DNA of 46,125 nucleotides, from assembly GCF_965641715.1 (NCBI RefSeq), contig NZ_OZ282456.1. One strand, given 5' to 3'. The notes under the pieces are model-generated. The model worked only from the letters and a program-made list of their open reading frames with translations, had not been told where the DNA came from and made no database searches. Source of the stretch: Escherichia coli. Its GTDB lineage: Bacteria; Pseudomonadota; Gammaproteobacteria; Enterobacterales; Enterobacteriaceae. A program made the position numbers and the translations under genes. The number at the start of each line of letters is the position of its first letter. The stretch's first letter is position 1. This document shows positions 1 to 32,639 of this stretch, in pieces.

Positions 1-849
1 ATGGATAGACCAATGCAGTCTCTACGTTCAGCTTACGTTTGTAATTTGTCGCCGGAGTTCCAGCCTCCAAAGCACCATACGCACAAGCTGCCGCTGGTGT
101 TATCTGATGCTTTACAGCGCATTAATGGTCGTGATCTTACGTGTGAGGTTGCGTTCTACGTTAATCAACCGTCAGAGCGGAAGCGCCGGATAAACGAGCA
201 TCGTCGTCGGGCGATTAATGCTGTGATTGCTGCAATTTTGCACCATGTAAACATCATTTCTAAGCGGGTTCTGGCCAGTGCTGAGGCGTTGGCTGATTTT
301 TGCGGCCTGTCTACCGTATCCGAAGCTGGGAACAAGTCTATAACACGCTGTACAAGGGCGTTGTCGCAACTGAAAGCGTTAGGTTTTATTGATTATGAAC
401 GTCGCTGGGATCGGGTGAATAAACAGTATTGGCCAGCGAAAATAGAGATTCGTGATCAACTGCTGGAAACCGTTGGTATTACTGAACAAGCATGGAGACG
501 TGCGGTTAGCCAGAAACTTAATTACTTCAATGCGAAGAATAGCGAACGGCTTAAAAAAGCGATAACGGAGGCTGATTATAAGCGTATTGTTATTCAGGAG
601 CAGATGGAGAATGTATGGCGTCAGAGGAAGACGGCCAGAGAGATAAAGGCAAAACAGAAAGCAGCGGAGAGAGCTGCGCGTCTTGTTCGGGAAAAGGGAG
701 AGGCCGAACTTCGTCATCAAATCACTAGAGAGGTTAGCCAGGAATTTGCTGATGGCATGTATCCTGGAGCTGACCTTGCATATTTACGATCCCTCGTTGA
801 GCAGCGTTATAACAGGTTAAGAAAGACCTGGAAATCACTCCAGCATTAA
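1..849 (+). CDS. repA: Plasmid replication initiator RepA (IncFII RepA1-like)
   Basis: 282-aa ORF beginning at window position 1; central segment SITRCTRALSQLKALGFIDYERRWD resembles the IncFII RepA1 family as recalled; followed downstream by a DnaA box and AT-rich tract as in IncFII oriR. Confidence 0.7.
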   Translation: MDRPMQSLRSAYVCNLSPEFQPPKHHTHKLPLVLSDALQRINGRDLTCEVAFYVNQPSERKRRINEHRRRAINAVIAAILHHVNIISKRVLASAEALADFCGLSTVSEAGNKSITRCTRALSQLKALGFIDYERRWDRVNKQYWPAKIEIRDQLLETVGITEQAWRRAVSQKLNYFNAKNSERLKKAITEADYKRIVIQEQMENVWRQRKTAREIKAKQKAAERAARLVREKGEAELRHQITREVSQEFADGMYPGADLAYLRSLVEQRYNRLRKTWKSLQH

Positions 850-3003: not shown

Positions 3004-3113
3004 TTATATAATTATAGATTTATATAAAAAGTGCTTTACAGGTGGGAAAAAATTTCCTATGGTTATACCCGAAACCGAGCGATACCCGCCCTGGTTAAAC
3101 CGGAGATAACCCG
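3004..3113 (+). promoter_or_regulatory. Copy A of a triplicated ~110-bp promoter-leader element (AT-rich box, -35 TTTACA at 3035-3040, 17-bp spacer, -10 TATGGT at 3058-3063, leader with GGAG)
   Basis: Near-identical to 12067-12175 and 16786-16895; each copy ends at an ATG. Confidence 0.55.
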
Positions 3114-3494
3114 ATGAGCATGATTAAAATCCGCAAAAACGCTTTCCTTAAAATTCAAACTATCCTGGCTGGTTCTGTTGGCGTGATTTGCCGTTCTTCC
3201 TCAAGCCGCATCGATGACTGCTACGATGATGAGTATCGTGTGTCCTCATGCGATGAGGCTTTAACCTGGCTGAAGGAGAATCAGGAACGTGCCCAGGTAT
3301 ATCTGGAAACAGAGAACGGCAATCAGATGCTGCGTATTAGCGGTCGTTATGGATTTGAAACTACATTCATGGCCTATTTTAATCAGGCTTACTTTGACAA
3401 GGAGTTGGCCTGGTACACTGATCGCATGAGCAAAAGCGAGCCAGCCCCGATTACACCGCCGAACAATAAACCATTTTTATTCCTCGTTAAGTAA
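3114..3494 (+). CDS. Hypothetical protein (driven by promoter-leader copy A)
   Basis: 126-aa ORF directly after the conserved leader and Shine-Dalgarno. Confidence 0.45.
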   Translation: MSMIKIRKNAFLKIQTILAGSVGVICRSSSSRIDDCYDDEYRVSSCDEALTWLKENQERAQVYLETENGNQMLRISGRYGFETTFMAYFNQAYFDKELAWYTDRMSKSEPAPITPPNNKPFLFLVK

Positions 3495-3502
3495 ACACAA
3501 TG

Positions 3503-3529
3503 CGCAAAGTGTCATTTTGACACTTTGCG
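3503..3529. promoter_or_regulatory. 27-bp perfect palindrome CGCAAAGTGTCA-TTT-TGACACTTTGCG; candidate operator
   Basis: 12-bp perfect inverted arms around a 3-bp centre, 29 bp upstream of an HTH regulator ATG; half-site copy AAAGTGTCATTTTGA at 12006-12020. Confidence 0.45.
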
Positions 3530-3557: not shown

Positions 3558-3830
3558 ATGACGGGTTATGAATTGAAATTATGGCGTCGTGGGATGAACT
3601 GGACGCAGGAGCGAGCCGCCGAAGAATTTGGGATATCGTTGGCTACATATAAGCGATATGAGAAGGGGGAGCCGCCGAGGGTCATTGAGATGGCCATTCG
3701 CGTTCTGTCGTTTGACGATATGGTGAAGGATCTTTCACACCTTGATAAAGATGCGATTCTGTTAAGGCTGCAAACCCTTGTATGGGAAAAGGTTAAAGTG
3801 TCGGCAGAATTGGAACAAGGGATCAAATGA
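3558..3830 (+). CDS. HTH (XRE-like) transcriptional regulator
   Basis: ATG at 3558 with GAGGAGGG upstream; HTH segment WTQERAAEEFGISLATYKRYEKGE; the track TTG start at 3525 lies inside the palindrome. Confidence 0.5.
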   Translation: MTGYELKLWRRGMNWTQERAAEEFGISLATYKRYEKGEPPRVIEMAIRVLSFDDMVKDLSHLDKDAILLRLQTLVWEKVKVSAELEQGIK

Positions 3831-3882
3831 TCCTTTACGGATCGTTTTATGGTGGTGTAATGTAAGCGCCAGAAAGACAAAA

Positions 3883-3905
3883 ACCGCCTTGCCGGGCGGT
3901 TTTCA
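3883..3905 (+). terminator. Rho-independent terminator (possibly bidirectional)
   Basis: ACCGCC-TTGCCG-GGCGGT hairpin followed by TTTT, preceded by an A-run. Confidence 0.45.
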
Positions 3906-4600
3906 GTCTGAAATTTAAATCTTGCTTGGTAGGCTGGATTTAAAAAGACACCTCTTGATTGGGGCGGCTTTCTTGCGTCTAAAGATAATCAAATCTTTTT
4001 GCGCCTGCAACCCCTTTTTTACTGGTGCCCATTTCAGACTCACGCTCGCGTCGTTGTCTTTGCCACTTCGTTGGGTTCGGTGTTTTTGGGCGAAGTGGCG
4101 CGCGGGTATGCGTACAAGGGGAAAGTGTGCTGACGCAAGCCAGGAACAGCGATCTAAACTAAGTCGAGTCTGAGAAAGGCAGGAGTGCGACAACTCGCCT
4201 GTGCTCTATGAGCAGAAGAAGGTATATCAGACGACCAATGGCATGATTGTGGGCCACAGGGCGCACACGGCGGCGAAGCATTGGAAACGATGTGGAGCTA
4301 TCTGGTGGCATGAGTTCCGGTACTCTATCTCGAGCTTTTTTTGATGCTTTTGAGAAGGGGCCGGAACTCCGGTAAAGGGCACCCTGTATGGGGGGAGGGG
4401 GGGTTGTGTCTGAAGGGTGGTTATCGGTTATGGTGGAATTATGATGCGTAGAAAAGCGAGTTTGCTGCAAGCTATTGGGTCCATTATTTCTTTGTTTCCG
4501 GCAGTTGATCATTTTCGTCATATGGCGACACGTTCCAGTATGGGCTTGGCGCGTGACGCTGACGCTATTCGAAAGGATTTTCAGAAAGTCTCTGGTGTTG

Positions 4601-4635
4601 ATAAGAGAGAAAAGAGTAAGGGGCCGTAGCCCCTT
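4601..4635 (-). terminator. Rho-independent terminator of the antirepressor operon
   Basis: AAGGGGC-CGTA-GCCCCTT hairpin immediately after the antirepressor stop, followed on the minus strand by a T-rich run. Confidence 0.55.
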
Positions 4636-4639
4636 GTAG

Positions 4640-5782
4640 TTATGGTCTGCTTTTCTGTGCCAGCTTATCAGCACATGTTTTTATCAGATCCTGTAGTGTC
4701 CTGGCTGGCAGGTTTGCATCCAGTACGCTGAGTATGCTGTTGTGATCTGCTTGGTCTACTACTTTGCCTGTCGGTGGTAGTAGCTTGAGCTGAGGATTCA
4801 GGTTTTCGTCAAAGCTGATAAGTGCTCTGGCGTTTCTGAGCAGATCAAGAAGTAAGGCTGATATCACATTTTCCTGAGTCATTGCTGGCAGATTTAGCGC
4901 CGCTTTGGTTTTCCCTGTTGCCTTGTCAAACTCCTTGATTAGTTCCTTCCTATAGTTCGGTTCCGTTAATAGCCGATTATGCTCTGTTGCCGCGCGGATA
5001 ATCGTTTTTTCCTGGTACAGTCGTTTAGCCAGATCGCGCTCGTACTGTGTTTTTAACACGCTGCTGATAGCGTTAAAGGCTTCAATGTAGGCTAGCTTGA
5101 TATCCTTCACGCCTGGACCGTCGATACTTTCCATGAGCAAGGTAAATCCGTCTTTTGTCATGCGATAGATTGTTATTTCGCGGTCGCTTCCTTCCAACGG
5201 TCGTTGCTCTTTAAAGAAATGACGCGCCGCAGCTGTGCGAGGAATGCGTAACGCATCGATGGCCATAACGATGGAATTGTTTGTGGTGCTGAATGCCTGG
5301 GCTACATCGGCTGAGGTTGTGAGTGGCTCGTTGTTGCACACCTTAACGTAATACATTGGTTTGGCGTTGAGCGTATCGACAACCTCACGAGCATTGTTTG
5401 GCGAGACGGTAACGGTCGCGGCCGTTTGCGCGTTCTGGTTGAAATAGCAGTCTTCCAGTTTTTCGAACACATCCCAAGCCTGATCGGTTTCGAGCATTTT
5501 GGCGTGACGGGCTGCTCCGTGTTCGGTCCAGAGAATTAGGGAGCGGGCATTTTTACCAACTAACCCGATTGTTTCAGGTCTGTTCTTGAACTCGCGTAAT
5601 TCGTTTTTTTCAATTTTAAAGTAATGCTTTCCGGCTATGAATCGCGTCGTGTTGTTCAGAAAGTTATCAGAAATGTTTTTGATTTTTGTTCCGTATAACT
5701 GCGCCAGAAGTTCAGTTGTAATAACGGGGATCTGGTTATGCAAGATAGGCTGTAGGGTGTTAACGGTCGGAAGCGTTTTCAT
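4640..5782 (-). CDS. Phage antirepressor (Ant-like)
   Basis: 380-aa ORF; N-terminal region with ILWTEHGAARHAKMLETDQAWDVFEKLEDCYF resembles antirepressor N-terminal domains and the C-terminal part resembles KilA-C-type domains, by recall. Confidence 0.55.
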   Translation of the reverse strand: MKTLPTVNTLQPILHNQIPVITTELLAQLYGTKIKNISDNFLNNTTRFIAGKHYFKIEKNELREFKNRPETIGLVGKNARSLILWTEHGAARHAKMLETDQAWDVFEKLEDCYFNQNAQTAATVTVSPNNAREVVDTLNAKPMYYVKVCNNEPLTTSADVAQAFSTTNNSIVMAIDALRIPRTAAARHFFKEQRPLEGSDREITIYRMTKDGFTLLMESIDGPGVKDIKLAYIEAFNAISSVLKTQYERDLAKRLYQEKTIIRAATEHNRLLTEPNYRKELIKEFDKATGKTKAALNLPAMTQENVISALLLDLLRNARALISFDENLNPQLKLLPPTGKVVDQADHNSILSVLDANLPARTLQDLIKTCADKLAQKSRP

Positions 5783-5970
5783 TTTGCACCTCCCATAACT
5801 ACTTTGGTTACGAGGGAGATTTTTGCGTCAGAAACAGCGTTATCGTTGCTGGCGATGCGCATAGCTTCGCGCTCGATTATTTCAGCCAGGCGGAATTTAT
5901 CGGCGTATGAGGCTTTCTTGAGAAGGATCTTTACGAGGTTGACGTAATAGTCATGGGGTAAGTTTGTCAT
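5779..5970 (-). CDS. Small hypothetical protein co-transcribed with the antirepressor
   Basis: Internal ATG at 5970 has GGAG 8 nt upstream; stop overlaps the antirepressor start; the track start at 6006 has no SD. Confidence 0.4.
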   Translation of the reverse strand: MTNLPHDYYVNLVKILLKKASYADKFRLAEIIEREAMRIASNDNAVSDAKISLVTKVVMGGAK

Positions 5971-6130
5971 TGTGATATCTCCAATATATGGAACTATCAC
6001 CGCCATTCGAGGCTAATCAAATGGTGGTGAGCCGTACAGGGTTAGCCTTACCGGACACAATGACGAACCGGCGCGGATTTCTCCGCCCCTGTACGACCCA
6101 CCATAATTTGGGCGTAACAGTGCTCTACGC

Positions 6131-6157: not shown

Positions 6158-6298
6158 CCATCGTGTTATTCAGGAGGCTAATCCCGACCGTAGATTTTGC
6201 TACGGCTCGGAAAGTGTCCACCAATGGCGCATTCATGTCAATACGGCGGGATTTTAACAGAGACAACCACATAGCGTGGGTTTATTGGTAGGCAGAAA

Positions 6299-6333: not shown

Positions 6334-6715
6334 GCTGATCGGATTCGCGGTCCTTTCAGCATAACGTCGTTGTGTAAACAACCACGCAAGCACAAGCGGC
6401 GTATCTATTCTTACTCAACTGAGGTGAATAGTCCACTATTCATATAAAGAAATTTAGTTCCTTAGTTCATGCAGAATGAAGTTTTTTAACTTCTTCGGAT
6501 GTAATTACATGTAATAAAAGCAATTGTTATTCCTTCATTATGAAGGCGAGGACGTGTAATATGGCTTGGGGCCTTTTCGCCGATTCGCACCCGGGCACCG
6601 ACTTTAAGGAAAGGATCATCCACTTGCCGTACACGCAAGCACAAGCGGAGTGCTTGCTCTCGCGTCATTTTCGTCGGTGGAGATGCCGTGAAACGGCCTG
6701 TAAGGGCCACACAAT

Positions 6716-6836
6716 GAAAAAATACTGTATGTGTATTTTTATCGTTGTTACTGGAGCTTTGTTTACGCCACATGGGGAGGGTTGGAAGATTACTGATAAC
6801 GCTCTGAATGTGACGATAAACATTAGCAGCAAGTAG
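6716..6836 (+). CDS. Candidate small hydrophobic peptide (40 aa)
   Basis: MKKYCMCIFIVVTGALFTPHGEGWKITDNALNVTINISSK; AAGGG upstream of the ATG; terminator immediately downstream. Confidence 0.2.
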
Positions 6837-6841
6837 CGATT

Positions 6842-6864
6842 AGGCCCCTTCGGGGGCCTTTTTT
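6842..6864 (+). terminator. Rho-independent terminator
   Basis: AGGCCCC-TTCG-GGGGCCT hairpin followed by TTTTTT. Confidence 0.55.
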
Positions 6865-7510: not shown

Positions 7511-7553
7511 GTGTATCCCCTCTTATATAAATCTATAAAACTATAATTATATA

Positions 7554-8207
7554 TTACGCGGCAGTAGTCAGAGCCTCAAGCTGGTTGATAATCCCCTGAA
7601 TAACGTCGTCTGCCTTTTTGCGTGGCGCAACGTATGAGCATTCAATGAGGCTTAAGCCCTTATCCTGAGCTTTGCTCAGAGCTGGCTTGTGGGGAATGTA
7701 CTTATCGACAACAAAGTATGGCGTATTAGCCAGGTACTCTTGGGCTTCAATATAGTCAGCTTCATTTTCAGCCGCGCCGGAAAACACCATGCAAATTTTC
7801 TTGATTGGCACACCCTTTTTAACGATGCCGTGAGCAGTGTTAACGGTGGTTTCCAGGTCATCGGTAGAGAATCGGGTTGGCAAAATAACCATATCCAGAA
7901 ATTCAGATAGCTTCGGTACTGATTCAGATGCGTAGGCACCGCCATCAACGATAACCAGGTCGTATACTTCTGATTCGATGATTTTCTGGACTTGTGATGG
8001 TGTGCCGCACGGCTGCGCCGCGATTGCTGGTTCGATATTGTTGGCCATTCTGCGTTGTACCCAACGCGTTACCGTTCCGTTAAGCACATCCATATCGATC
8101 AGGCATACATTCCAGCCAGCCTTTGCATAAGCAACTGCTAAAGCACGGGCAATTGTTGATTTGGTTACGCCGCCTTTTCCGTTGAAAATACCTACAGAGA
8201 TAGTCAT
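7554..8207 (-). CDS. parA: Partition ATPase ParA/ParF (Walker-type)
   Basis: Deviant Walker A GKGGVTKST near the N-terminus; ATG at 8207 has GGAG 9 nt upstream (track start 8222 lacks SD). Confidence 0.8.
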   Translation of the reverse strand: MTISVGIFNGKGGVTKSTIARALAVAYAKAGWNVCLIDMDVLNGTVTRWVQRRMANNIEPAIAAQPCGTPSQVQKIIESEVYDLVIVDGGAYASESVPKLSEFLDMVILPTRFSTDDLETTVNTAHGIVKKGVPIKKICMVFSGAAENEADYIEAQEYLANTPYFVVDKYIPHKPALSKAQDKGLSLIECSYVAPRKKADDVIQGIINQLEALTTAA

Positions 8208-8222
8208 TTGTCGAGACTCCAT

Positions 8223-8345
8223 GTGTTTGGTTATATAATTCTATAAATCTATATTTATAGAACGAGGTAAGCATAACCAACTTTTTGGCGGATGGAAAGC
8301 GTTTTATATAATTATATAAATCTATAATCATATAAGCGGGCGTTA
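8223..8345. repeat. AT-rich repeat array upstream of parA; candidate partition site/operator
   Basis: Two copies of TTATATAATT(C/A)TATAAATCTATA at 8231-8260 and 8304-8335. Confidence 0.4.
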
Positions 8346-12006: not shown

Positions 12007-12066
12007 AAGTGTCATTTTGAGCTGTTTTGATGGTGTGTAGACATCGGGAACATCGAAAATCTATAA

Positions 12067-12175
12067 ATATATAATTATAGATTTATATAAAAAGTGCTTT
12101 ACAGGTGGGAAAAAATTTCCTAAGGTTATACCCGAAACCGAGCGATACCCGCCCTGGTTAAACCGGAGAAATCTG
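12067..12175 (+). promoter_or_regulatory. Copy B of the triplicated promoter-leader element
   Basis: About 97 percent identical to 3004-3113 and 16786-16895 over about 100 bp; one base shorter before the ATG. Confidence 0.55.
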
Positions 12176-13243
12176 ATGAATAAACAAGTAATTATTTCTG
12201 ACTGGATCAACAACCCTAACAGCCTGTTAAGCACTGATACTGGCTACCTATTACGCCATGTTAATGGTCGTATGGTCAAAAGCGATGAGCACGAAACCTT
12301 TTTCTTTGTTGAAGACGATGGGCGTATCTATGAGGATGGTTACTCTTATGAAGCCCAAACTGGTTGTATCCCTGCGGAGCTGGTGGACGTAACAGAAGAT
12401 CTGCGCAAAGCATGGCTTGAACAGCAGCAGCGCGGAGATGATTACGTAAACACCTATCAGGAACGCCAGAACGCGCGTCTTGCCCGATATATTGCTCGTG
12501 CAGAAAAAGCCAGAAAAGAAGGTGCGGTAGCGCATAAGCGAGCGCATGACCTGTTGGATGTGATCCCGTTAGGCCAGCCGATTTTAGTTGACCATTATAG
12601 CGCGAAAGGCCATCGCCGCCGTTTGTCTAAAGCTGATGCGTTATTCAGAAAAGCGTTTGTTGAATGCGAAAGTAAAGCATCACACTACGAGAGCAAAGCC
12701 GCAGGTGTTGGTCGTAATGGAATTTCGTCTGATGATCCTGATGCGCTATTTAAGTTGCTTCGTAAGCTGCAAGGCTGCATGAAGTCACACGTCAAAATGA
12801 AGGCCGCAAATAAGGCCATTCGCAAATACAAAAAAGACCAATTACAGCAGCTTTCTGCATTAATCGATCTCAGGTTTACAGAAAGCGAAGCCAAAGAGTT
12901 ACTGGCCGGAGATTTCTGTGGGCACATCGGATTCCCTTCATACGCACTGAGCAACAATAAGGCCGAAATCAAACGACTACAGAGCCGTATTAAGGAGCTT
13001 GAATCGGTCAAGTCTGTAACAGGAGCACAGCGCGAAGAATACGACGGCTTTTCTATGGAGATAGATCCAGAGGATAACCGCATCCTGTTTTATTTCCCTG
13101 GCAAACCAGAGGCAAACATTCGTTCGCTGCTTAAATCACGCGCCTTTAAGTGGAGTCCAACCCGTAATGCATGGGTTCGCAAGATTACTCCAAACGCCCT
13201 GGCTGATGCCCGATATCTGAAAGAATCGCTATTGAAAGCCTGA
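12176..13243 (+). CDS. DUF3560-family protein
   Basis: Segments GQPILVDHYSAKGHRRRLSKADA, ISSDDPDALFKL and MKAANKAIRKYKK match DUF3560 as recalled. Confidence 0.5.
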   Translation: MNKQVIISDWINNPNSLLSTDTGYLLRHVNGRMVKSDEHETFFFVEDDGRIYEDGYSYEAQTGCIPAELVDVTEDLRKAWLEQQQRGDDYVNTYQERQNARLARYIARAEKARKEGAVAHKRAHDLLDVIPLGQPILVDHYSAKGHRRRLSKADALFRKAFVECESKASHYESKAAGVGRNGISSDDPDALFKLLRKLQGCMKSHVKMKAANKAIRKYKKDQLQQLSALIDLRFTESEAKELLAGDFCGHIGFPSYALSNNKAEIKRLQSRIKELESVKSVTGAQREEYDGFSMEIDPEDNRILFYFPGKPEANIRSLLKSRAFKWSPTRNAWVRKITPNALADARYLKESLLKA

Positions 13244-13320
13244 CAGTAAGCCTACGGCGGGATATCTCCCGCCGTATATAGAATTATATATTTATATAAA
13301 TGTATAAGGACGCCTCGACA

Positions 13321-15643: not shown

Positions 15644-15720
15644 TATATATTTCTATAATTATATAAATATATAGTTACAACATTCTATGCGCTTTTCTCA
15701 TGGGCGCACGCATCAACCAT

Positions 15721-15812: not shown

Positions 15813-15888
15813 GGCCCCTTAGCTCAGTGGTTAGAGCAGGCGACTCATAATCGCACGGTCATCGGTTCAAATCCGGTAGGGGCCACCA
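15813..15888 (+). tRNA. tRNA with CAT anticodon (Met by anticodon; sequence resembles the lysidine-type tRNA-Ile2)
   Basis: Manual cloverleaf: 7-bp acceptor stem GGCCCCT/AGGGGCC, D-arm GCTC-AGTGGTTA-GAGC, anticodon loop CTCATAA, T-loop GGTTCAAATCC, 3' CCA encoded. Confidence 0.8.
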
Positions 15889-16195: not shown

Positions 16196-16783
16196 ATGGA
16201 GGCAATTGCATTGTTTAATCTGATTTATGCAGATCCCCCCTGGGAATACAAAGACAAGTGTAAGGATGGGAATCGTGGAGCTGGTTTTAAGTATCCAACG
16301 ATGAAAGCTGAGGAGATTGCTCGTATTCCTGTCTGGCAGCTTGCTAATCCTGAATCGTGTTTGTTGGCCATGTGGTGGGTTCCGACTCAGCCAGAAGAAG
16401 CGTTGCTGGTGGTTAAAGCATGGGGATTCAGGCTGATGACCATGAAGGGCTTCACATGGAACAAATGTGGTAGCCGACAACCAGATAAGCTGGTGATGGG
16501 GATGGGGCATATGACTCGTGCAAACAGTGAAGATTGCTTGTTTGCGGTAAAAGGCAAACTGCCGACCCGTCTTGATGCGGGGATCATTCAGTCGTTTACA
16601 TCGCCTCGTCTGGAGCATTCTCGGAAGCCTGATGTGGTCCGTGACAAGCTGGTAAAGCTGTTAGGTGATGTTCCTCGTATTGAGCTGTTTGCTCGCGGTG
16701 ATTTACCTGATGGCTGGCATGGCTGGGGCAACCAGTGCAATGGAGGTATCCAGTTGCATGATGCTCTCTGGCAAGTGGCATAG
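16196..16783 (+). CDS. MT-A70-family DNA N6-adenine methyltransferase
   Basis: Catalytic DPPW motif near the N-terminus (IYADPPWEY), size about 195 aa. Confidence 0.75.
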   Translation: MEAIALFNLIYADPPWEYKDKCKDGNRGAGFKYPTMKAEEIARIPVWQLANPESCLLAMWWVPTQPEEALLVVKAWGFRLMTMKGFTWNKCGSRQPDKLVMGMGHMTRANSEDCLFAVKGKLPTRLDAGIIQSFTSPRLEHSRKPDVVRDKLVKLLGDVPRIELFARGDLPDGWHGWGNQCNGGIQLHDALWQVA

Positions 16784-16785
16784 AA

Positions 16786-16895
16786 TTATATAATTATAGA
16801 TTTATATAAAAAGTGCTTTACAGGTGGGAAAAAATTTCCTAAGGTTATACCCGAAACCGAGCGATACCCGCCCTGGTTAAACCGGAGATAACCCG
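16786..16895 (+). promoter_or_regulatory. Copy C of the triplicated promoter-leader element
   Basis: Near-identical to copies A and B; ends at the ATG of 16896. Confidence 0.55.
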
Positions 16896-17165
16896 ATGAA
16901 AGTACAAGACCGTGAAGTAGTAAAAAACCTCCTGCAATACCTGACCTCAAAAAACCTGACGGGCAGCGTTGAGTTCCGTGAAGCGTTAAAACATTTCAAC
17001 GTCACTACGGTTTATCGTTGGGAAAACGAACATTCTGAAAGACCGTATGTGGTGGATGTTTTTGCGCCTGATATTGAGTGCGGTTTTGAGCGTCATTCGT
17101 TCAAGGAGAAACATTCCGCTGATGTTTTTTGTGAGGTTGTATGTGCGGCAGGAGATGATGAGTGA
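16896..17165 (+). CDS. Hypothetical protein (driven by promoter-leader copy C)
   Basis: 89-aa ORF directly after the conserved leader. Confidence 0.4.
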   Translation: MKVQDREVVKNLLQYLTSKNLTGSVEFREALKHFNVTTVYRWENEHSERPYVVDVFAPDIECGFERHSFKEKHSADVFCEVVCAAGDDE

Positions 17166-31176: not shown

Positions 31177-32639
31177 TGGGATATCGCCACGGTATTTATA
31201 TATCTGAACTGGCTACATCTATAACTCCTCCAGTGCAAGTTAGTGCTGGGTTGATTGTCGCATTTGGTACGGCTCCTGTTAATCAGTTAGAAGATCCAGC
31301 CTCAGCGGTAAATAAACCTATCATTGCTTATACATACGCAGAGGCCGTATCTAAAATAGGATATAGCACAAACTTCGAGAAATATACTTTAAGCGAAGTA
31401 ATTAAAGTCGCATTTGGAATATATGGTGTTGCGCCAGTTGTATTTATCAATGTGCTTGATCCAGCAAAGCATAAGAAAGACGTTACTGATGAGTTAGTAA
31501 AACTTTCTGGCGGGAAAGGTACGCTCTCTAACGATGGTGTCTTATATAAATCTGTTGTTGTGAAAAAAGCAGATGGTGATTCACCTGGGTTAACGGTTGA
31601 TACCGATTATGTGCTGGCGCTGGATGATAATGGCTATACGGTCATTACAGCTATTAGCGGAGGAAAAATTACCGAAAAAGACGCTACTCTTAAGGTTAGT
31701 TATACGCATCTTGATCCCGGTGCCGTAACTAAAAATGACATTATCGGTGGTGTGGATTCCAACACTAAAGCCAATACAGGGCTTGAGTTACTGTCAGATG
31801 TGTATCCCCGCTTCAAGTTAGTTCCTGGACAAGTGATTGCACCTGGATTTAGTTCTGATAGTGAAGTTGGTCAGCTAATGGCGGCTAAAGCCGCGCTGAT
31901 TAGTGAATTGTTCAAAGCAGAAGCTATAACGGATGCGCCGACCGATAAATCTACTATCAGTGATTACTCGGCTGTTCCTGAATGGAAACAGAACAATAAT
32001 CACATGGCCGCTAACCAGACAGTGTGCTGGCCGATGGTGAAACTTGGTGACAATATTTACCATCACTCAACCCATTTAGCGGCCGCAACATGCTTGCTGG
32101 ATAGTCAGTATGGTGATATTCCATCACGTTCTCCGTCAAATATAAAACTACAGATGGACGGTGCTGTACGTAAAAATGGCAGTGAAGTATGGCTTAACAT
32201 TAGCCAGGCAAACTACTTAAATGGACAGGGGATTGTAACAAGCCTTAATTTTGATGGTTGGAAATCATGGGGAAACCGTAATGCTATTTATCCAACATCT
32301 ACAGACCCCAAAGACGCATTTCGTGTTTGCCGACGTATGTTTAACTGGGTGGGTAATACGTTAATTCTTTCGCATTGGTCAAAAATAGACAATCCTGCAA
32401 ACCGTCGATTAATTGAATCGATTGTTACAAGTGCGAATATTTGGCTTAACGGCCTCACAGGTAATCAGGATATTGCAGGTGGTGTTGTTACCTTTGATCA
32501 GTCTGAAAACACGATTACGTCATTAATGGACGGGATTGTTAAATTCCATGTAAAAATGACACCGTTCTCACCTGCCAGAGATATAGAGTTCGTCATGGAA
32601 TATAATCCTGATTATCTGCTGAACTTGTTTTCTGAATAA
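31176..32639 (+). CDS. Contractile tail sheath protein
   Basis: 487 aa, followed by tube gene; Mu/P2-like order. Confidence 0.8.
   Translation: MGYRHGIYISELATSITPPVQVSAGLIVAFGTAPVNQLEDPASAVNKPIIAYTYAEAVSKIGYSTNFEKYTLSEVIKVAFGIYGVAPVVFINVLDPAKHKKDVTDELVKLSGGKGTLSNDGVLYKSVVVKKADGDSPGLTVDTDYVLALDDNGYTVITAISGGKITEKDATLKVSYTHLDPGAVTKNDIIGGVDSNTKANTGLELLSDVYPRFKLVPGQVIAPGFSSDSEVGQLMAAKAALISELFKAEAITDAPTDKSTISDYSAVPEWKQNNNHMAANQTVCWPMVKLGDNIYHHSTHLAAATCLLDSQYGDIPSRSPSNIKLQMDGAVRKNGSEVWLNISQANYLNGQGIVTSLNFDGWKSWGNRNAIYPTSTDPKDAFRVCRRMFNWVGNTLILSHWSKIDNPANRRLIESIVTSANIWLNGLTGNQDIAGGVVTFDQSENTITSLMDGIVKFHVKMTPFSPARDIEFVMEYNPDYLLNLFSE

Follow-up and report, generated by a model that had tools for sequence, protein, structure and literature searches.

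A probable diverged ColE1-type RNA-primed replication origin in an enterobacterial phage-plasmid

The RNA-primed replication origins of the ColE1/pMB1 plasmid family are textbook material, the module comprising a preprimer RNA (RNA II), an antisense RNA (RNA I, 108 nucleotides (nt) long in ColE1) and no initiator gene. The subject of this study is a block of about 700 bp, poor in open reading frames (ORFs), in a 46,125-nt stretch of Escherichia coli DNA (contig NZ_OZ282456.1; the whole stretch is called the window below). The sequence makes it probable, at roughly 0.8, that this block is a diverged RNA-primed origin of the ColE1 family, situated in a phage-plasmid that also has an IncFII-type RepA/oriR replicon. 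A preliminary description of the window had drawn attention to the ORF-poor block, to a hairpin and a G-rich tract within it and to an ORF of 62 amino acids (aa) beyond the tract, all of which are present, with small offsets in coordinates (1–2 nt for the tract and the hairpin arms).

Phage P1 uses oriR/repA for the plasmid state and kilA-repL/oriL, beside the immI c4-icd-ant operon, for lytic growth, and its oriL depends on the RepL protein and is co-directional with ant. The element in the window shares with P1 the immI organization (C4 RNA, icd-like ORF and ant), and has a putative second replicon just beyond ant in addition to the RepA origin. It differs from P1 in that this second replicon is predicted to be RNA-primed, is free of ORFs and is convergent on ant.

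A literature search found RNA-based prophage origins only in mycobacteriophages (PMC7157519), and did not turn up any enterobacterial phage-plasmid described as having an RNA-primed origin of the ColE1 type. In the parABS cluster A mycobacteriophages, replication from the RNA-based prophage origin was demonstrated experimentally (Wetzel et al., 2020; PMC7157519). The likeness to the present element lies in an extrachromosomal prophage whose replication region is near partition or maintenance genes and uses a non-coding RNA instead of an initiator protein. Those phages, however, are actinobacterial and have no repA, whereas the E. coli element has repA as well as a candidate RNA-primed origin, predicted from its sequence.

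Correspondence of the block with ColE1-type origins

The likeness to a ColE1-type origin was indicated by an A-run followed by a GC hairpin whose U-tract is better on the - strand, by a structured RNA of about 540 nt that ends in a G-run and, further, by a concentration of sequence variation just after the hairpin at 3880–3903. The features of the block are as follows.

About 3766–4416: the block, non-coding
3766–3819, + strand: start of the hyperconserved zone, in the last ~60 nt of a helix-turn-helix (HTH) gene
3820–3843: three Dam sites (GATC at 3821–3824, 3829–3832 and 3840–3843), spaced as in or upstream of the ColE1/pMB1 RNA II promoter and aligned to ColE1 590–613
3835–3863, + strand: predicted RNA II-like promoter, with -35 TTACGG (3835–3840), a 17-nt spacer, -10 TAATGT (3858–3863) and a predicted start at about A3871
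3871–4412, + strand: predicted RNA II-like preprimer, about 505–540 nt, highly structured
3880–3903: preprimer stem-loop I; on the - strand, predicted intrinsic terminator of the antisense RNA, with its U-tract at 3877–3870
3870–3975, - strand: predicted antisense RNA resembling RNA I, with three stem-loops in about 105 nt, ending at the 3905–3878 terminator
3982–4010, - strand: predicted antisense promoter, a weak consensus match, with -35 TTGCAG (4010–4005), a 17-nt spacer and -10 TATCTT (3987–3982)
4062–4099, + strand: preprimer helix (the hairpin of the preliminary description)
4278–4293, + strand: hairpin whose GAAA tetraloop is invariant; its homologue in Col-type RNA II is the ...GGAAACG... 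hairpin
4336–4378, + strand: origin-proximal motif TTTTTTTGATGCTTTTGAGAAGGGGCCGGAACTCCGGTAAAG, aligned by MAFFT to ColE1 TTTTTGTGATGCTCGTCAGGGGGGCGGAGCCTATGGAAAAA
4390–4403, + strand: invariant G6AG7 tract, located at the predicted switch from RNA to DNA or immediately after it
4412–4416: limit of conservation, where the cargo slot begins; relatives diverge completely beyond it
4441–4629, + strand: 62-aa ORF, read as optional cargo that does not belong to the replicon; relatives lack it or have something else in its place

The clearest similarity is at the 5' end. The segment 590–658 of ColE1 (NC_001371), which we take to be its RNA II promoter and start, is the best match of 3820–3888 in the whole plasmid on either strand, with a score of 17 that none of 2000 dinucleotide shuffles reached (8.25 ± 1.26). 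The predicted promoter aligns column for column with the ColE1 arrangement TTGAGA-N17-TAATCT, so that the -10 hexamers read TAATGT in the block and TAATCT in ColE1, and in both cases a GATC cluster accompanies the promoter and an A-run and GC hairpin come first in the RNA. The GATC cluster is invariant in seven divergent relatives, apart from a C/T difference at 3824, in the first GATC, in three Salmonella copies. An operator-like palindrome in this stretch, GGATCAAATGATCC, was considered as an operator and set aside, as it occurs nowhere else in the window and is better explained as the ancestral cluster of Dam sites.

The hairpin at 3880–3903 (arms AAAACCGCC and GGCGGTTTT) matches its counterpart in many small Col-type plasmids at 96% identity over 25 nt. 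The preliminary description had placed the block between two terminators, and hairpins do exist at both sites (3880–3903 and 4618–4635), but the left one is reinterpreted here as forming stem-loop I in the primer RNA and as terminating the antisense RNA on the other strand; its U-tract is better on the - than on the + strand. This double use of the first hairpin, with a predicted three-stem-loop antisense RNA of about 105 nt, is again as in the ColE1/pMB1 family.

A blastn search of PLSDB with the 101 nt at 3812–3912 returned around 1,790 plasmid records, of which about 1,700 do not belong to the block's own family and are mostly small Col-type plasmids. The top match (75% over 89 nt, E = 5e-4) was pB16EC0481-2 (CP088798.1), a 7-kb MOBP-typed plasmid of rep_cluster_2401 in which Rop lies about 1 kb downstream, in the geometry of ColE1; small MOBP plasmids of this cluster are the closest sequences found. 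In the reverse direction, a search of the phage collection with the origin of pB16EC0481-2 returned the Yersinia phages that carry the block (E = 4e-4). Col-type origins occurred otherwise in that collection only in small or vector-like records, plus one weak fragment in Salmonella phage SE2 (JQ007353.1), an unrelated 43-kb phage, where 170 nt at 32099–32270 are 70.7% identical to a Col-type RNA I/RNA II region (E = 7e-7).

Beyond the first 90 nt, to which identity of up to about 75% is confined, the correspondence with the ColE1/pMB1 family needs colinear or profile alignment. An nhmmer comparison of 3800–4430 with pB16EC0481-2 was colinear, aligning 3809–4302 to 451–972 with E = 1.1e-11, a value that comes from a small database and an alignment of low certainty in its middle. 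The region of the GAAA hairpin (4255–4330) has its best match in the Col-type plasmid L042 at the colinear position 929–969, with a score of 15 against 10.8 ± 1.2 in shuffles (maximum 14). The colinearity with the family extends through this hairpin and, more tentatively, through the T-rich/GATGCT/G-run motif that precedes the predicted switch.

The ColE1 switch from RNA to DNA presumably lies at the end of the motif aligned to 4336–4378. The best match of 4325–4420 in the whole ColE1 plasmid is at 1157–1184, a match whose score alone is not significant and which we place beside the ColE1 origin on the basis of the RNAI site at 645–749 and the ColE1 primer length of 555 nt. Three reasonable alignments put the ColE1 transition at about 4377, inside the G tract or at about 4412, and the switch in the block could fall anywhere within 4377–4412. 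The predicted distance from promoter to switch point is some 505–540 nt, against 555 in ColE1.

The block also departs from the ColE1/pMB1 family in several respects. Its predicted RNA I is not recognized by the Rfam model RF00106, it has no rop, mob genes or cer site nearby, and it has an additional invariant G6AG7 at or after the switch point. Its predicted promoter overlaps the HTH gene at that gene's 3' end, and the whole lies in a temperate myovirus-plasmid of 46–49 kb with an IncFII-type RepA replicon and ParA.

RNA structure, predicted antisense RNA and conservation

Consensus folding of 12 distinct sequences with RNAalifold predicted 160 pairs, at which 99.2% of cells were paired, compared to about 45% when the partners were slid. 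Six pairs showed double (compensatory) changes and covariation exceeded that of all 500 shuffles, although divergence among the sequences is low and covariation therefore bears on only part of the helices. The clearest helices are the hairpin at 4062–4099, with three compensatory pairs, and the GAAA-capped hairpin at 4278–4293, with two. The changes also distinguish the strands: 27 of 38 variable pairs remained canonical on the + strand and six on the - strand, and when each strand was folded independently the figures were 27 of 39 (+) and 9 of 23 (-). Most single changes are switches from G-C or A-U to G-U, which pair on the + strand only. The block is thus read as specifying a long structured + strand RNA together with a predicted short antisense RNA. 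The suggestion of a non-coding RNA in the preliminary description therefore stands in substance, while a ColE1-type origin had not been among the options considered.

The hairpin at 4062–4099 had been described, at 4064–4101, with 9-bp arms and a 20-nt loop; both are present, but the arms are in fact at 4062–4070 and 4091–4099. With 15 inverted repeats of at least 8 nt within 900 nt, this hairpin alone would be within chance, and it is the three compensatory pairs in relatives, together with U-G wobbles valid only on the + strand, that validate it.

In the predicted antisense RNA, the loops of the first (3956–3959) and third (3893) stem-loops vary while their stems are fixed, and the middle stem-loop (3914–3935) varies as a whole; in the stretch of the predicted antisense promoter, only 3994 and 4001 vary among relatives. 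Variation focused on loops is the pattern that would be expected of kissing-loop specificity determinants. The Rfam RNAI model places its sub-threshold match in the window at 3877–3950 (-), and it finds RNAI of pB16EC0481-2 at 518–618 (-), the positional equivalent of 3877–3975 (-). A covariance model built from the block's own predicted antisense RNA (R1) had as its top matches the Rfam-verified RNAI genes of the plasmids L042 and L043, on the correct strand (25.3 bits, E ~1.5e-4), and gave only 11.4 bits on ColE1 itself. RNAI of pB16EC0481-2 is recovered by this model at 25.3 bits.

Identity across the block is 88–91% in relatives from Salmonella, Klebsiella (K. aerogenes), Yokenella and Citrobacter, whereas repA, parA and structural genes of the same relatives are 68–81% identical at the DNA level, and neighboring genes and backbone taken together 50–81%. 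The HTH protein is 69–74% identical in these elements, and the identity of its gene leaps from 50–67% to 82–97% at about 3766. The zone 3766–3819 may be upstream promoter context or a recombination boundary. At the other end, homology stops in all relatives at 4412–4416, just past the G tract. The stretch after the HTH gene is unannotated in every relative. More distant relatives were not found: a 20-mer scan of species-representative genomes gave no matches, a search of IMG/VR returned only members of the block's own family, and BLAST of the 3' 166 nt likewise gave family members only. HTH homologues of 57% identity or less lie in unrelated contexts without the block. In some other mobile elements, homologues of the HTH protein (54%) are followed by defense-like genes in place of the RNA block, namely Mrr_cat in L027 (3501–4807) and an AAA_15/AAA_21 ATPase with a partner in L029 (3501–6216).

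That the block is a decayed protein-coding gene, as the preliminary description had allowed, is hardly credible given this conservation. Overlapping ORFs of 40–170 aa do exist on both strands, but those inside the block match no family in PHROGs, NCBIfam or PADLOC, the block shows no codon-position bias, and frame-breaking 1-nt indels are scattered through the block among relatives; far from decaying, it is the most conserved segment of its region (~90% against 68–81% for the backbone). The only frame open in 11 of 12 relatives encodes 50 aa on the - strand, and its substitutions fall 9/7/9 by codon position, which rules it out as a gene. A hok/sok-like type I toxin-antitoxin system was rejected because no small + strand ORF is conserved across relatives, and a CsrB-like GGA sponge, a group I/II intron, a retron or defense-associated reverse transcriptase (DRT) non-coding RNA and a pac site were dropped once the ColE1 homology had been found and no partner genes were seen. 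A search for tandem or iteron-like repeats found only short two-copy matches. The structure-based family search proposed in the preliminary description identified no Rfam family in the block at threshold: the whole-window scan at gathering scores returned C4, isrK, ryfA and a tRNA, all outside it, and in a scan of the region with the limit relaxed to E = 1 the only matches were to Phe_leader and WT1-AS, at the level of chance.

Several observations weigh against the reading of the block as a ColE1-type origin. An nhmmer search of ColE1 itself with the family profile found no match, and neither 3990–4260 nor the last 100 nt has individually significant similarity to Col plasmids. Rfam RNAI (RF00106) scores 18–20 bits on the family (18.1 bits, E = 0.36, on the window) against a gathering cut-off of 47. 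The predicted promoters are weak consensus matches, the -35 TTACGG among them, and none was picked up by a generic promoter scan. A rop gene is neither present here nor annotated in relatives, and there is no conserved primosome-assembly site or DnaA box after the origin. Part of the high conservation could be due to lineages having exchanged the module recently. Since RepA/oriR and partition genes are present, a second, normally multicopy replicon is not obviously needed and the block could be silent or a fossil. In that case an element for whose maintenance RepA/oriR with its DnaA box and ParA would suffice acquired the origin long ago, by cointegration with a small Col plasmid, and the origin has ceased to prime. 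The weak -35 and the low RNAI score would fit such a fossil, as would the presence in the block's family of only AAGGGGCC where ColE1 has its G6 run ahead of the switch point. This explanation is considered unlikely. The block is the best-conserved stretch of its region across genera, its substitutions preserve structure, and the loops of the antisense RNA diversify over fixed stems, a combination that points to ongoing selection and not to decay.

The G tract and the cargo slot

The preliminary description had reported the G tract as G5AG7 at 4391–4403, which is a substring of the full tract, G6AG7 at 4390–4403. The tract is unique in the window, where shuffles average 0.15 matches at up to two mismatches, and it has no counterpart in the two Col-type plasmids that were aligned (ColE1 and pB16EC0481-2). 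Homopolymeric G runs are classic slippage sites, and the tract had accordingly been proposed as part of a slippage-prone, phase-variable promoter or leader, with a check for length variation among related genomes. No such variation was found. Elements of Escherichia, Salmonella, Klebsiella, Yokenella and Citrobacter provide more than 30 independent copies in which the length is constant, base substitutions occur in two copies (L011 and L022), and the shorter tract in one error-prone assembly of ATCC 25922 is contradicted by other assemblies of that strain. An invariant length argues that the tract is not phase-variable, and a role as a phase switch is, like the pseudogene, given practically no weight.

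Since G-rich RNA on a C-rich template is the classic arrangement for forming R-loops, we infer that G6AG7 may anchor or stabilize an RNA-DNA hybrid, or may itself be the switch site. Mitochondrial conserved sequence block II (CSB II) has a nearly identical G-run/A/G-run on the non-template strand, at the H-strand primer site where primer RNA hands over to DNA synthesis; this is an analogy only, without homology and with other polymerases.

In the predicted folds the G tract pairs over a long range with C4U6 at 4011–4020, both sides of which are invariant and so give no covariation signal. Such a helix resembles a sequestering one, and a same-strand cargo ORF often follows directly, as would suit an RNA derived from RNA II and co-opted for a function outside replication, such as that of a regulatory RNA or of a long leader for the cargo, gated by the cis-antisense RNA. 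The contents of the slot at 4412–4640 make this quite unlikely. The slot holds the 62-aa ORF, a protein of 211–218 aa (phrog_23465; L004 4617–5252, L021 4405–5040, L023 4401–5045 and L020 1480–2136) or nothing, and several relatives thus keep the whole RNA with no cargo at all. Where cargo genes are present they have their own ribosome-binding sites, 37–62 nt away, and the origin-proximal ColE1 motif is retained.

The 62-aa ORF does begin 37 nt past the G tract, as had been described. It has only a weak PHROG match and no Pfam match, and it was rejected as an analogue of Rop on the latter ground and because the rop gene of ColE1 is convergent with RNA II and not co-directional. The 211–218-aa protein has two N-terminal hydrophobic, apparently transmembrane segments and no Pfam or PADLOC match, and could be a superinfection-exclusion or abortive-infection protein.

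The phage-plasmid and the predicted use of the probable origin

The window is identical to the E. coli plasmid CP055628.1 (46,125 bp). Three Yersinia pestis myophages (vB_YpM_39, vB_YpM_41 and vB_YpM_44) are near-identical elements, and around 70 complete E. coli plasmids of 47–50 kb, that of ATCC 25922 among them, also carry the block. The phage-plasmid character is taken from the annotation of one relative, which includes an IncFII-type repA, a RelE/HigA pair, ParA, an XRE repressor, holins, terminase and tail genes. The features around the block that bear on its use are the following.

1–849: repA, IncFII-type, from the annotation of a relative
991–999: DnaA box TTATCCACA, the sole perfect one in the window, about 140 nt after repA
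3558–3830, + strand: HTH gene, left neighbor of the block
4618–4635: bidirectional terminator hairpin, ending ant (-) and the cargo or readthrough transcript (+)
4640–5782, - strand: ORF6N/Rha antirepressor gene (ant), right neighbor of the block

The RepA origin looks intact, and the position of the DnaA box is compatible with an IncFII-type oriR, which would give the element two candidate origins 3.4 kb apart. The GC skew is positive nearly throughout the window, as would suit unidirectional replication that starts at this end of the genome and runs rightward, and at this distance it is unable to separate oriR from the ColE1-like origin. No replication gene besides repA appeared in the annotation of the relative or in the few protein-family scans that were made. 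In the Yokenella relative L022, sub-threshold leader- or terminator-like Rfam matches (Leu_leader, 33.7 bits) lie at 138–249 (-), just upstream of repA, presumably the position at which IncFII replicons have their CopA-type antisense RNA.

Upstream of ant there is P1-type immI control, with a C4 antisense RNA at 6108–6020 (-; 70.8 bits), isrK at 6206–6133 (-; 65.7 bits) and an icd-like ORF of 75 aa at 5779–6006 (-; phrog_7886). Between immI and the partition genes, in a gap that otherwise has no annotation, lies a full-length ryfA RNA at 6567–6864 (+; 135.5 bits), an RNA with a probable link to a type I toxin-antitoxin system. The tRNA at 15813–15888 has a CAT anticodon and is called tRNA-Met by ARAGORN and tRNA-Ile by RefSeq at the matching site of a relative; it would read as a lysidine-type tRNA-Ile2.

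A palindrome with 12-bp arms, CGCAAAGTGTCA-TTT-TGACACTTTGCG, at 3503–3529 lies a short way upstream of the HTH gene, where it overlaps with a TTGACA hexamer, and probably serves the HTH protein itself as operator. Three copies are present of a cassette of about 115–128 bp (3005–3117, 12062–12188 and 16781–16908) that are 94–96% identical, each consisting of an AT-rich palindrome (AATCTATAA...TTATAGATT), a TTTACA promoter, a conserved 5' untranslated region and a Shine-Dalgarno sequence with ATG. The palindrome alone recurs near 7523–7555, 8231–8261, 8312–8334, 13276–13300 and 15644–15671, which suggests scattered repressor operators as in P1. The copy at 3005–3117 heads a 126-aa gene and the HTH gene, which read straight into the preprimer.

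Homology, colinearity, conservation, the structural signature of the RNA and the antisense layout are read from the sequence, and the use of the block is predicted by analogy with ColE1. On this model, transcription of the preprimer would start near 3871, from the Dam-site-rich promoter over the end of the HTH gene, and the RNA would fold and keep a persistent hybrid with its template near 4377–4412, aided by G6AG7. RNase H would then process the hybrid and DNA polymerase I extend it rightwards. The antisense RNA would pair with the 5' end of the nascent preprimer, and in this way set copy number and incompatibility.

A role of the origin in induced (lytic) replication, through readthrough from the cassette at 3005–3117, is attractive but speculative. 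In its fullest form this proposal, which is doubtful, holds that in the lysogen the weak promoter of the module itself is restrained by the antisense RNA while RepA/oriR and ParA keep copy number low, and that on induction the cassette would transcribe through the 126-aa and HTH genes and allow the preprimer to escape antisense control. The G tract, in the manner of CSB II, may then form a G-rich hybrid of RNA and DNA during transcription, perhaps as a hybrid G-quadruplex, which would set the 3' end of the primer and could free priming from the canonical ColE1 G-run or from RNase H.

A ColE1-type origin at this site would turn an unannotated gap into a specific, testable replicon in about 70 E. 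coli plasmids, in elements of other enterobacterial genera and in Yersinia phages. PLSDB (MOB-suite) gives no replicon type for these plasmids, and replicon-typing tools currently overlook this probable origin. The occurrence of RepA and RNA-primed origins together would raise the question of how copy number and incompatibility with the small Col plasmids so common in these hosts are set, as well as that of how lytic replication starts in a phage whose annotation and few scans show no replication gene but repA. The G6AG7 tract, finally, may offer a bacterial system for studying R-loop and G-run priming.

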